64,000 nucleotides of DNA from Malacoraja senta (GCA_038087875.1 CM075987.1:28150001-28214000); one strand, 5' to 3'; shown: positions 34,001 to 49,000, counted from the stretch's first letter. The notes: generated by a model from the sequence alone, not told the origin. A program made the numbers and translations.

Positions 34001-37000
34001 TTCTCATCGAACACTTAGGGATTCATGGTGGGCTGATAATGAGACTGATGAAAGATCCAACCATCTCATACTTCCGAGTGATATTCATACACCTCCTGGA
34101 CAAAGTAACTTGAACTTGAGCAGGAGAATTTCTGGGGATACAATCGGAATAGGCGGTAGCCTATCTCACATTGATCGTGGGTAAGAGCATTCTGTGAAAT
34201 AGATTCATTGCAGTACTTACAATAATCATGACAACTATTCCCAGAGCGGGTTGTCTTTGACCTCCATGTGCAGGCAGTGTACTCTCCCTCCATTATACAG
34301 TATCATTGCTGTATTGAACTTCATAATGTCACAATTAAAAATGTACAATTTACTTTTCTGGAAGTAAGACTCTGAAGCAGTTATTTAAATGAACCTTGTG
34401 AAATACCACAAAGACTTGCTAAAGAAGCTGAAGATGTGAGTTAGGCTTTCCTTTAGACTGCACACGTGACGATAGTGATACAATGTGATCCAATATGCCA
34501 CTGCACCACACTTATTTCCAAATATGACACTGATTTCTTACTATAGTAGGAGAGTGAAACTAGGTTAAGAATATTCATTAATACATTTACAATTTTAATA
34601 AGTAAATTGGGATTGAAATTAAAAAACAGGAAATGCTGGAAATAGTCAGCAGGTCATAACATCTATAAAGAGATTGTTCTATTCACAACTGAAATAAAAA
34701 TCTGACATGATTCAATTTGCAGAGTGGGAAAGTGTTGTAGAGATGGTTTGAACTGAAGTTCAAGGGAATGAAGTTTCAAATTATATGACCATAAATTTTG
34801 TATGATGTTTGTAATTGGTGTTACCCTGGAAACTCAATAAATGTTTTGCTGCACTAAACGCATATCTTTTAATTTCCCTCATTATCTAAAAATCTATGTC
34901 CCTGAAGTAAATATACACAACTACCAGAGCCTTCGTGGGTCATGAATTCTAAAGATTCAGTACTTCTGGCTGCAGAAGTTTCCTTTCATCTCTGTCCTGA
35001 ATGATGGACCATTTATTTTGAGACACTGACCCCTGGTCTAAAACCTCAGCCAGTGGAAACACCAACTTTGCATTTGCCCTAATAAATCCCACAGTGGGAT
35101 CCCAACTGATTTGCTAAAGTCCCATCCATATCTAACCCCATCTCAAGTAAAAATATTGTTTTCTCATATTGGCCTGCGCTGGGTGCCGGAGGTTGGACAG
35201 GCTTGCGATGGGTGCCGGAGGTCAGTCAAGGACGTGCTGCAGAGGGAACAAAGAGGGACCCGGCGTGGGGAGACCACCGAGAACAGAGAGAGACCATTGG
35301 GTGTACATTAAAAAAATTGTAATTATATCAGCACCTTATACGTGGCGACTCTTTGCATACTTTATATATGGTACGCAAAACTAAGAATTTCACTGTGACA
35401 TGTCACATATGATAATAAAGTATAACTTCATTCATTCATTCATTCATTCTTTTCAGGTGAGGACCATTTCTCTTCGACTCAATTTCAATGATATGGTTTG
35501 CCTTGAAGTGTAGCTCCCTTCATTCACCTAAGACCTAAAGGGTATTTCTAAGTTCTAAAGCCACTAACATAGCTGCACTGTGCCTGCATTTGATTTCTGA
35601 AATCAGAATTATAGAGATTACTGATCTAACATTTTTTTATGTGAAAGGAAACTAAAATCAAAAATAACTAGAATGTTTCCCTTTAACTGCATTCTCCTAG
35701 ACTTCAAAGTGACTACACCAGCAGAATGCAGAATGAATTGCAGCCTATCAGTGCAATGCAAGTGCCTTCACAGTAAGTAAAATAGATCTGTAAATCTACT
35801 CGGAGTTAAAATTCCACTGATAATATTGGATAATTATTGGATCATGAAGATATCAAAATTACCATATCTTTGCAAATTCTTCAACATCACTGAATGATCA
35901 TGAAGAGACTCGCAGCATGGTGGCAACTGATCTGCTGAAGTCCCATCCATACCTGAGCCCATCTCCAGAAACAAGATTGTGTTCTCACATTCTTTTAAAG
36001 TGAGGACCATTTCATCCTTGCCTCAATATTAATGATATGATTCACCTTAAAGAGTAGCTCCATTCATTCTACATAAGAAGTAAAGGGCATTATTATAAAT
36101 TCTAAAGCCACTAATAAAGTTGACCTGTGAATGCATTTGAATTCTAAAATCAGTATTTCAGAGATTACTGATCTTTCACATGTTTATGAGAAAGGAAACT
36201 GGAATCAGAAATAACTAGAATATTTCCCTTCAACTTCATTCTCCTAAAAATCAAAGTAACTACACTAGCATCAGGCGGAATCACTTCCTCTCAGTGAAAT
36301 ACAAGTGGCTTCACAGTGAGTAATGTAGATTTATTAATCTCCACTGATAATATTGCTAATATGTTCACATAAACCCCTTAAGTGTTTTCCAAACAAAGTC
36401 CCATATCCTTTAATTTCCCTCAGTATCATTGAAACATGGAAAAATAGGTGCTGGAGTAGGCCATTCGGTCCTTCGAACCAGCACCACCATTCAATATGAT
36501 CAGTACCCCATTCCTGCTGTTTCCCCATATCCCTTGATTCCATTAGCCCTAAGAGCCAAATCTAACTCTCTTTGAAAACATCCAGTGAATTGGCCTCCAC
36601 TGCCTTCTGTGGCAGAGAATTCCACAGATTCACAACTCTCTCGGTGAAAAATGTTTTCCTCATCTCAGTCCTAAATAGCCTACCCCTTATTCTTAAACTG
36701 TGACCCCCTAGTTCTGGACTCCCCAACATCAGGAACATTTTTCCTGCATCTAGCCTATCCAATCCTTTAAAAATGTTATGTGTTTCTCTGAAGTAAATAT
36801 ACTCCAATACCAGAGCTTTGTGGGTCATGAATTCTAACGATTCAGTACTTCTGGCTGAAGACATTTCTTCTCATCTCTCCCGCCAGTGGAAACACCAACT
36901 TCTCATTTACCCTAACAAATCCCACAGTGGTTGGATCATGGAGATATCAAAATTATGATATCTTCACAAATACTTCAACATCACTGAATGATCATGAAAA

Positions 37001-46000: not shown

Positions 46001-49000
46001 AGGTTGAGCAGACTGGGACAATTTCTTGGAACACAGGAGGATGAGGGGTGATCTTGTAGAGATGCATAAAATCATGAGAGGAATAGATCAGTATCACACA
46101 ATCTCTTGCCAGAGTAGGGGAATAGAGAACCAGAGGACATAGGTTTAAGGCGAAGGAGAAAAGATTTAATCTGAGGATCTGAGGGATATCTTCCACACAA
46201 ATAGGGTGGTAGGTTCATGAAACAAGCTGCTAGAGGAGATAGTTGAGGAAGGGACTATCGTTTATGAAAAATTTAGACAGGCACATAGATAGGATAGGTT
46301 TACATGGATATGGGCCAAACGTAGGCAGGTAGAATTAGTGCAAATGAGACATGTTGGTCGATGTGGGCAAATTGGGCCTGATTCCATGCTGTATGACTCA
46401 ATGACTCAAAGTAAATATGCTCCGCTACCAGAGCTTTGTGGCCATGAATTCTAAAGATTCAGTACTTCTGGCTGAAGACATTTCTTCTCATCTCTATCGT
46501 GAATGGTGGACTATTTATTTTGTGACACTTACCCCAAGTCAAAAACTTCAACCAGTGGAAACAACAACTCCTCATTCACCCTAACAAATCCCGCAGTGGT
46601 TGCATCTTGAAGATATAAAAATTACGATATCTTCACAAATTCTTCAACATCACTGAATGATCATGAAAAGACTTGTTTGACCCATGATTTCTGGTCCTGT
46701 AATTGTAACTTAGGTGTGATCATCCTTAGGTGTGCCAGATTAAAGTGATTCACATTTGCTTGACCACCTCATTAAGTTCTTTGAGCAACTGATCTGCTGA
46801 AGTTCCATCCATATCTGAGCCCATCATGAGTATTAAGATTGTGTTCCCACATTCTTTTAAAGTGAGGACCATTTTGTCCTTGCCTCAATATTAATGATAT
46901 GATTCACCTTAAAGAGTAGCTCCATTCATTCTACATAAGAAGTAAAGGGTATTATTATAACCTCTAAAGCCACTAACATAGTAGCACTGGGCCTGCATTT
47001 GAATTCTAAAATCTGAATTATAGAGATTACTGATCCATTACATTTTTATGTAAAAGGAAACTAAAATAAATAATAACTAGAATGTTTTCCTTTAACTTCA
47101 TTCTCCCAGATTTCAAAGTGACTACAGGCGGAAAGATTTGCTGCCTCTCAGTGAAATGCAAAGTCCTTCACAGTGAGTAAAATAGATCTATTAATCTCCC
47201 TGGTGTTTAAATTCCATAGATAATATTACTAATATGTTCATATAAAACCCTCAAATGTTCTAGCCATTTTCTTTAGTTCTATCAATCTGTACTGATAGTC
47301 TTTCTATAGAAGTGTTTTATCATTAACTGTGGTTTCCCCTCGATCATATTTGATGGAGCTCTCAATTGTACATTCTGTGTACAGTAATGCATGGCCCAAC
47401 TGCATATCAGAATGATGTGGAGAATACTGCAGTGCAAGGAGGTAGGCATAGGGAGGAAGGATAGGGGAAGAAGCTGGGGAGACAGAGAGAGGGGAAGGAG
47501 GCAGAGGTTCAATATGACAAAAGTAATGAGACGATGTTGCAACTTTTGAAACAAGCCCAATTCAAGATACAAGCCAAGAAAAATCTAGAGACAATCAGTG
47601 ATTAGGAAAGATAGCATCATATACTGTGGGTAGACACAAAATGCTGGAGTAACTCAGTGGGACAGGCAGCATCTCTGGAGAGAAGGAATGGGTGATATTT
47701 TGGGTCGAGACCCTTCTTCAGACTACTTCAGATATTGTGCATAGCTCAGAAAGTCAGCATATGTTCTTCATCAAGCCCAGAGGAGGGAAGAGAGGGCTAA
47801 CTAGAGAATGCTTGAACATTATAGTGGCCAAAGGGGGTGGTACGGGTGGGGATAACTGGCGTATACAGTCATAGAAACATCGAAAATTGGTGCAGGGGTA
47901 GACCCTTCAGCCCTTTGAGCCACCACCGCCATTCAATATGATCATGGCTAATCATCCAAAATCAGGACCCTGTTCCTGCTTCCTCCCCATATCTCTTGAT
48001 TCCCTGAGCCCTAAGAGCTAAATCAACTCAAGATGGCGTCTGACTGTGGCGACATATTACCAGCAGCACAGCAGAAAATTATCAAATATAGTAGTTCTCA
48101 GTTTCCCAGTATAAAAGAAACAGCAGGAACCAGCGCTGCAACTGACAAGCTACTAATGCATTTAAATGTTTAAGAAGGAACTGCAGATGCTGGAAAATCG
48201 AAGGTAGTCAAAAATGCTGGGGAAATTCAGCGGGTGAGGCAGCATCTATGGAGCGAAGGAAATAGGCAACGTTTCGGGTCGAAACCCTTCTTCAGACTCA
48301 TGCATTTAAATGCATTAGCGCTAATGTGAAGTGGGAGATTGCAACCTTCACGTGGTCCACCCTGGCAGACGTCCGTCTAGCACTGGAGGAGCTGCACGAC
48401 ATGGTCAACAAGCACCAGACAGCGTATCTCGAAGCCTTTACCACCATAGCCGGGGTCTTCAACAAATCCAACCTGAAAAAATCACTCCCAAACTACCACC
48501 AACATGTCTCCTGCAGCACCAGAGGATTAAACACCCTTGACCACTGCTATACAACCATCAAGGATGCTTATCGCTCTATCCCTTGCCCTCACTTCGGGAA
48601 ATCCGACCATTCAGCGGTGCTGCTTCTTCCTGCATAGAGGCAGCAACTGAAGAGCGCACCCCCAGAGGTGAGGTCTGTACAGAGCTGGTCTGGGGTGGAG
48701 GGGGGGGGGGGGGGGCAGAGGAACAACTAGGGGACTGTTTGAAGTCAGTAGACTGGGTAATGTCCAAGGACTCCGCAACGGACCTAAATGAATACGCCAC
48801 AGTCGATACAGACTTCATAAGGAAACGTGTGGAGGACTGTGTTCCAACAAAAACCTTCCAAGTGTTTCCTAACAAGAAGCCTTGGATGAACCGGGAGATC
48901 CGCATTCTTCTCGGGACCAGATCCCAGGCATTCAGGTCTGGCGAGGCAGAGGTCTAGAAGAAGTCCAGATACGACGTTGACAAAGCCATCAAAGAGGGGG

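Follow-up and report, generated by a model that had tools for sequence, protein, structure and literature searches.

In the skate Malacoraja senta, a 12-kb genomic repeat is made of nine tandem copies of a small exon within one gene, and eight of the nine copies are intact. The repeat lies in a stretch of 64,000 nt (GCA_038087875.1 CM075987.1:28150001-28214000, one strand; hereafter the window, from whose first base all positions are counted unless stated otherwise). A preliminary description of this DNA had proposed a tandem exon-duplication array encoding a protein repeat, and the unit map, the collinear exons and the orthologue in little skate (Leucoraja erinacea) all agree with it. The account that we favor, and hold to be probable as a whole, is that an old array of duplicated exons lengthens the tail of a membrane protein of elasmobranchs. 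Its structural part is highly probable; its functional part, in which the repeated modules would act as docking or phosphorylation motifs, is put forward tentatively.

Mapping one clean unit (40258-41107) back onto the region showed that the 850-bp unit, an exon with its intron, is arrayed about ten times over 34861-47251, and the limits given previously (34860-47265) were therefore accurate. A repeat search found many families of direct repeats, spaced at ~850 nt or at 850 nt plus insertions, between positions 34.9 and 47.3 kb. Tandem Repeats Finder (TRF) reported no repeat at the unit period, having overlooked the array because its maximum period is 500 nt. In the 1.94-Gb genome of the species itself, full-length matches to the unit occurred at this locus alone, and the one assembly searched contained a single array locus, with no second haplotype copy found. 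Of the 48 DNA matches to the unit, 22 lay in the array, and the 26 elsewhere covered unit positions ~230-338 only. This ~100-nt piece of the unit intron (~40490-40595 and the corresponding part of the other units), found at those 26 further genome sites at 74-88% identity, is therefore an old dispersed element that was in place before the first duplication of the unit. We rejected the identity of the array with a genome-wide satellite or transposable element (TE), as elsewhere in the genome only the ~100 nt of unit intron recurs.

On the unit map, ~9 non-unit blocks break up the array and several stretches within it are deleted; the exons lie outside all of these. Open reading frames (ORFs) resembling reverse transcriptase (RT) lie on the minus strand at 37843-38418 and 42455-42993, and very high read and contig depth (at 90% likeness, over 33950-53949) was confined to bins of the non-unit blocks. 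About 10 TE insertions, all in introns, had been reported in the preliminary description. Their location stands, with ~9 blocks lying between exons, but the weight placed on it does not: the exon makes up only ~8.5% of the unit, and by simple arithmetic nine random hits would all miss the exons with a probability of ~0.45, so the confinement of TEs to introns is uninformative.

We located the exon copies with a regular-expression scan for splice context. All nine are preceded by TCTCCYAG (TCTCCTAA in one copy) and followed by GTRAGTAA. In the eight intact copies, a pyrimidine-rich tract ends in AG and the donor reads GTGAGTAA or GTAAGTAA; splice sites are canonical in these eight, and the remaining copy has AA in place of AG. 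Eight of the nine copies are 63 or 72 nt long, free of stops and in phase 2 on both sides (1 nt, whole codons, 2 nt), while the ninth, of 68 nt, is broken. We regard that copy, at 36248-36315, as dead because its acceptor has changed from AG to AA and it carries a 4-nt deletion; in a tree of flanking sequence, its unit groups with the unit at 38655. All exon-exon junctions read CA followed by A, a Gln codon, and since both boundaries of an exon fall between the second and third bases of a codon, the reading frame is kept at any copy number. Seven peptide positions are invariant in the eight intact copies (Q2, D4, Y5, P15, S17, P22 and S23), and the sole length difference among intact exons is an in-frame 9-nt gap that removes Ser-Ser-Ile from three copies. 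On each of these points the scan bore out what had been described before, namely a ~850-bp unit with acceptor, 63- or 72-nt exon and donor, eight intact stop-free copies in phase 2, a peptide consensus with which the eight intact peptides agree, and a single, in-frame length change of 9 nt. The features of the array and of the adjoining exons are collected in Table 1.

Table 1. Coordinates of the array, its exons and foreign blocks, and the neighboring exons of the host gene in the window.
Feature	Position	Strand	Remarks
Array of ~850-bp units	34861..47251	+	Unit map, repeat search, own-genome search
Unique exon just upstream of the array, 162 nt, phase 2 both sides	34019..34180	+	Peptide ends ...SLSHIDR; tblastn, little-skate aa 496-549
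Repeat exon 1, 72 nt, L-type, most diverged	35701..35772	+	Best match little-skate repeat r1, 21/24 residues
Dead H-type copy, 68 nt, frameshifted	36248..36315	+	TCTCCTAA for acceptor, AG>AA, 4-nt deletion
Repeat exon, 72 nt, H-type	38655..38726	+	
Repeat exon, 63 nt, I-type, without the 9 nt coding SSI	40258..40320	+	Within the 180-nt patch 40193-40372
Repeat exon, 72 nt, H-type	41108..41179	+	
Repeat exon, 63 nt, I-type	43179..43241	+	Identical to exon 40258-40320
Repeat exon, 72 nt, second L-type	44383..44454	+	Best match little-skate repeat r6, 22/24 residues
Repeat exon, 72 nt, H-type	45028..45099	+	
Last repeat exon, 63 nt, F-type	47110..47172	+	Acceptor TCTCCCAG
Two-unit (H then I) duplicated block, including a fragment of a long interspersed nuclear element (LINE)	39249..40594	+	Partner 42106-43531
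LINE reverse-transcriptase fragment in unit intron	37748..38375	-	Gap in unit map; RT-like ORFs
Remaining non-unit blocks	~35171-35445, 36428-36881, 37005-37557, 39250-40078, 41815-42970, 43532-43864, 44605-44776, 45244-46475		Gaps in unit map
First unique exon 3' of the array, 69 nt, phase 2 both sides	52965..53033	+	91% identity, little-skate aa 730-752
Next exon, 72 nt, phase 2 both sides	54810..54881	+	87.5% identity, little-skate aa 753-776
Last coding piece, FNDLSLN and TAA	57481..57505	+	Identical to little-skate C-terminus; good acceptor

The gene that holds the array can be followed on both sides of it. A search with the 53-aa peptide of the upstream flanking exon matched XP_055516398.1 of L. 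erinacea (E 7e-20, 88% identity), a 783-aa protein recorded as "uncharacterized protein LOC129712172 isoform X2". This protein carries eight repeats whose types follow the window order (L, H, I, H, I, L, H, F), after which come the same C-terminal exons. When the little-skate protein was aligned to the window with tblastn, its exons fell collinearly on the plus strand from 958 to 54882, and an AATAAA at 57584 lies downstream of the terminal coding piece. In a search of the whole genome, 15 of 16 matches to the little-skate protein were collinear on C11:28055144-28204882, the sixteenth being weak and elsewhere, so the gene is single-copy and ~150 kb long. On this evidence the array is the 3' part of a predicted single-copy protein-coding gene on the plus strand, and the chain of junctions proposed earlier (34180>35701>38655>40258...47172>52965) fits the little-skate protein.

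From the little-skate protein we infer a type I membrane protein with a signal peptide, an ectodomain of ~90 aa, one very conserved transmembrane (TM) helix and a tail of ~650 aa. AlphaFold2, run on a six-sequence alignment of the family, modeled helices at residues 2-16 (the signal peptide), 107-134 (the TM helix, with a predicted local distance difference test score [pLDDT] of 91-94) and 136-148 (juxtamembrane). The remainder, including the whole repeat region, had a pLDDT below 50 and no secondary structure; the tail is probably cytoplasmic and disordered. The core of the family around the TM helix is nearly invariant (CDCS...EGNERA.VA.LGLLSLLCI), and the tail repeats differ by lineage, with 12-aa repeats in Mobula and Pristis (...SSPSFHDKILR...), 19-20-aa repeats in sawshark and the 21/24-aa repeats in skates.

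Searches for relatives stayed almost entirely within elasmobranchs. No Pfam-A family matched the 783-aa orthologue at E <=1, and phmmer against 1.84 billion representatives gave eight matches at E <=0.001, seven of them from elasmobranchs (little skate, sawfish, two Mobula, catshark, numbfish and sawshark), all "uncharacterized" in their NCBI records. We took the eighth, a plant repeat protein (E 7e-4), to be a chance match, and apart from it phmmer found no further protein matching the repeat region. A search with orthologue residues 496-783 returned only its own cluster, among proteins of 430-1371 aa, and a family-profile search found nothing outside elasmobranchs. Neighbors in the ESM Atlas were small single-pass membrane proteins, LIME1 among them at 0.85; all fell under the bar of 0.9, and we claim no kinship. 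The sawshark (Pristiophorus) homologue has at least 41 listed isoforms, some of which are automatically named 'serine/arginine repetitive matrix protein 2-like' or 'afadin-like' in UniRef. Our literature search found nothing on LOC129712172 or on tandem exon duplication in elasmobranchs. The repeat had been presented as new; it is uncharacterized, with no Pfam family and no paper found, yet it is already present in a public predicted protein in RefSeq.

The two skates allow the age of the array to be judged. Ordered by first residue and length, the window copies are L24, the dead H, H24, I21, H24, I21, L24, H24 and F21, and those of little skate are L24, H21, I21, H24, I21, L24, H24 and F21; the two unique (L) types pair one-to-one between the species, at 21/24 and 22/24 identical residues. 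A repeat-type order shared by two skate genera implies that the arrangement predates their split rather than reflecting a recent expansion, and the array is thus old, older than the divergence of these genera. Its earlier beginnings may be glimpsed in sawshark, where, in a collinear BLASTP segment (E 3e-7), the first repeat of skate pairs with one stretch only, after which the sawshark protein goes on to the conserved C-terminus, although the alignment is weak at that end. This suggests a single ancestral exon, and the apparent single copy in sawshark would place the expansion in the ray and skate lineage, before the two skate genera split.

Within the array, copying did not proceed only one unit at a time. 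The segments 39249-40594 and 42106-43531 are 81% identical over 1442 nt, and an intronic LINE fragment is present in both; a two-unit block was duplicated as a whole, LINE fragment included. One patch of 180 nt (40193-40372) stands out from this comparison, as it matches the copy at 43179 at 177 of 180 positions within surroundings of ~81% identity, where the other 21 windows of the block comparison have 29-53 identical bases per 60. Given that the patch is short and set in an 81% background, gene conversion fits better than a new duplication, and we interpret it as a conversion tract. The proteins, too, hint at concerted evolution: the RR[RK]-x position holds Glu in five window units and Asp in six little-skate units, and the three H-type exons are alike at 22-23 of 24 residues in the window versus 17-19 of 24 in little skate.

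These observations bear on the reading of the preliminary description, in which the array is a young macrosatellite, still expanding and variable in copy number, with alternatively spliced exons. We consider this unlikely. The identical exon pair and its patch, 98% identical over 180 nt, could be taken as signs of youth, as could the H-type units at 41108 and 45028, which are only 4-7% apart; nevertheless, the patch is better explained by conversion, pairwise divergence among units ranges over 4-25%, and most pairs are 11-25% apart. Nine window units, one of them dead, against eight little-skate repeats would allow for a difference of one unit, but the order of repeat types is unchanged in another genus, and of the ~9 TE and other blocks in the array, one is older than the block duplication. 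Nor does the array show the high unit likeness of a variable-number tandem repeat, with a mean pairwise divergence of 0.13-0.20 and ~9 foreign blocks. The claim of recent expansion accordingly gives way before an eight-exon order common to another genus, units that are both diverged and TE-ridden, and a TE fragment copied together with its block. The proposal of alternative splicing fares no better in skates, even though the sawshark isoforms suggest that repeat exons of this family can be alternatively spliced: the four annotated little-skate isoforms (XP_055516397-400, X1-X4) differ at the N-terminus and in two upstream exons, and all four retain all eight repeats.

We asked how many exon copies should still be intact under neutrality. 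We simulated a consensus exon, with its AG and GT, drifting on a tree derived from the flanking intron columns over 20,000 runs. With substitutions only, a mean of 3.4 of nine copies stayed intact, and eight or more did so in 1.2% of runs; with insertions and deletions added at the rate of the flanks (15 gap blocks per 164 variable columns), the mean fell to 1.8, and none of the 20,000 runs kept eight or more. The purifying selection proposed earlier therefore holds for the reading frame and splice sites, which are retained beyond neutral expectation, but not for amino acid constraint among the units, where the ratio of nonsynonymous to synonymous differences (pN/pS) is 1.69. Variable columns are spread over codon positions as 9/10/7, out of 23 codons. 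Apart from a few invariant residues, the paralogous units show no constraint at the amino acid level; they retain the frame, the splice sites and the motif residues, a pattern expected of repeats in a disordered region.

Several observations weigh against the account that we favor. Concerning the exons, the orthologue, whose eight repeats lend indirect support to the inclusion of the exons in mRNA, is an automated RefSeq model, and none of the sequencing runs on record that contain 47000-56999 is RNA. In the TE-free exon bins (39953-41286, 43955-44621 and 46623-47289) depth was 0 or near 0, although the RNA behind this figure is one polyA run from a related species of which ~6% was read, so that a blank is uninformative; mapping of the same RNA run and of three contig sets at 90% likeness over 33950-53949 likewise listed no splice-like exon joints. 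The simulation has weak points of its own, since gene conversion has also touched the flanks from which its tree was built, the root was placed at the midpoint and the ancestor is a consensus. The comparison of exon with intron divergence and of dN/dS, which the preliminary description had put forward as a check, showed little constraint on the amino acids: among the eight intact units, divergence is 0.133 in the exon, only slightly under the 0.164 of the upstream flank and the 0.202 of the downstream flank, and the pN/pS of 1.69 is pooled over unit pairs (pS 0.091, pN 0.153) that are not independent and rest on small counts. Concerning the protein, a low pLDDT is as compatible with a shallow alignment of six sequences as with disorder, and a hydrophobic, Cys-rich stretch encoded by the exon at ~25805-25918 could be a lipid-anchored or second membrane segment that changes the topology of the tail; AlphaFold2 modeled no helix there. 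Concerning the motifs, YSSI occurs in three of the eight units (the H-type exons), with Ser at -2 in one of the three, and the 63-nt exons read YRRK instead. The consensus of the immunoreceptor tyrosine-based inhibitory motif (ITIM) is [SIVL]xYxx[ILV], and Yxx followed by a hydrophobic residue is a further Tyr consensus; the strict ITIM pattern fits one of the three YSSI units of the window. Finally, the putative sawshark copy has Phe in place of the repeat Tyr, and a phosphotyrosine reading is the weaker for it.

Some of these same points would favor a view in which the units are a decaying or neutral intronic repeat rather than expressed exons, and the orthologue model is an ab initio artifact. 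The blank in the partly read polyA run, the pN/pS of ~1.7, the near-equal conservation of flanks and exons and the one plainly dead copy would all be at home there. We nonetheless find it very unlikely. AG, GT, frame and open reading are kept in eight of nine copies against a neutral expectation of 1.8-3.4, the frame continues through the eight exons to C-terminal exons that are 87-100% identical with little skate and end in FNDLSLN and a stop, and the eight repeats are open in a second genus too. NCBI Gnomon isoform models normally need transcript alignments, which also counts against an artifact. It is scarcely credible that the array hosts repeated intronic noncoding RNAs, in the manner of snoRNA host genes, with the exons incidental, for although 200 nt upstream and 120 nt downstream of the exons are conserved among units almost as well as the exon itself, the exons are open in the frame set by the conserved coding exons to either side, and Rfam, searched at E <=0.1 with both strands of 33900-53200, gave a single sub-threshold chance match (plant MIR530, partly within a TE block, with 35 bits where the gathering score is 85).

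Under the duplicated-exon account that we prefer, one small exon and its intron were duplicated in tandem into nine 850-bp units, presumably by unequal crossing-over between units. Block duplication, the build-up of TEs in introns and the death of one exon reshaped the array later, and local gene conversion is still homogenizing its copies. Each repeat would add a module of 21 or 24 aa that starts with an invariant, acidic-Tyr Q-x-D-Y and ends with P-x-S...P-S (Pro-Leu-Ser-Glu / Pro-Ser-Gln). Such modules could act as multivalent short linear motifs for docking or phosphorylation, in which case the copy number would set the valency of the tail, and selection would be limited, within each unit, to the frame, the splice sites and a few residues of the motifs.

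A broader and rather doubtful idea is that this elasmobranch-only membrane protein, with a TM core that hardly varies and a tail made entirely of same-phase mini-exons, is an evolvable platform for cassettes, of which different lineages amplified different ones independently. If this were true, the 21/24-aa QSDY repeats would be the cassette of skates, the 12-aa SPSFHDKIL repeats that of manta and sawfish, and the 19-20-aa repeats, with dozens of isoforms, that of sawshark. Gene conversion would then keep units alike within a species, the valency of a signaling or adhesion scaffold would be tuned by lineage, and conflict-driven or reproductive selection would be possible.

The case is one of real but ordinary gene growth, and it opens no new class of mechanism. 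It does offer a datable example of a protein tail growing by tandem duplication of a frame-neutral exon. The likely history starts with one copy in a shark, after which the array expanded in the skate lineage and was later marked by TE accumulation, block duplication and gene conversion. The case also draws attention to an uncharacterized membrane protein restricted to elasmobranchs, which, with a very conserved TM helix and a repetitive tail that changes fast, is a candidate for a lineage-specific receptor or adaptor. For genome scans the case carries a caution, in that TE-free exons and unit likeness are weak evidence of selection if exons make up little of the unit and gene conversion is active.

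Other parts of the gene show features of their own. Three micro-exons on the plus strand (11601-11624, 21200-21226 and 22491-22517; 24, 27 and 27 nt) are in phase 2 on both sides, are flanked by ...TTTCTAG and by GTAAGA or GTGAGA, and encode peptides related to one another; they resemble a scattered set of exon duplicates of greater age. Motifs of the form ERSR...Q in the sawshark homologue are similar to the micro-exon peptides. The plus-strand exon at ~25805-25918, with its hydrophobic Cys-rich stretch, is skipped in little-skate isoform X4. The two exons that follow the array, at 52965-53033 and 54810-54881, share the phase of the repeat exons, and the peptide of the former faintly resembles the repeat; both may be much older relatives of the repeat exon. 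Within an intron of the gene, a repeat at 26701-27488 is open in all three minus frames (213-251 codons). Microsatellites of the hexamer TGATGG occupy 53781-53844 (10.7 copies) and 54539-54710 (28.8 copies) in the intron before exon 54810, and a long CT/GA-rich tract of low complexity lies at ~17040-17606.

Among known systems, the adaptors LAT, PAG and LIME1 share the general build of the predicted protein, in which a small ectodomain and a lone TM helix are followed by a long tail that lacks structure and carries repeated Tyr motifs. They differ in that no sequence relationship was detected, as the orthologue has no Pfam family and its HMMER relatives are elasmobranch proteins and one chance plant match; the resemblance concerns how the protein might work and not family membership. 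Coding macrosatellites such as the LPA kringle IV-2 repeat share with the window a kilobase-scale, exon-bearing unit repeated head to tail in a gene. Kringle IV-2 units, however, are nearly identical and highly polymorphic in copy number, whereas those of the window differ by 4-25%, are interrupted by TEs and keep one order in two genera. In titin PEVK and nebulin, small same-phase exons are duplicated with their introns, each adds one module to a protein region that is modular or lacks structure, and no copy number upsets the frame, as in the window; those proteins are unrelated, with no similarity in repeat sequence, and the scale of the window array is far smaller (eight intact exons, nine copies). 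Little-skate LOC129712172, finally, belongs to another genus, has Asp where the window has Glu at RR[RK]-x, shows small changes of its own in the second and eighth repeats, and has no ninth, dead copy visible in its protein; it nevertheless matches the window gene in its collinear exons, in a flanking exon at 88% identity, in eight repeats whose types and order agree, and in an identical C-terminus.

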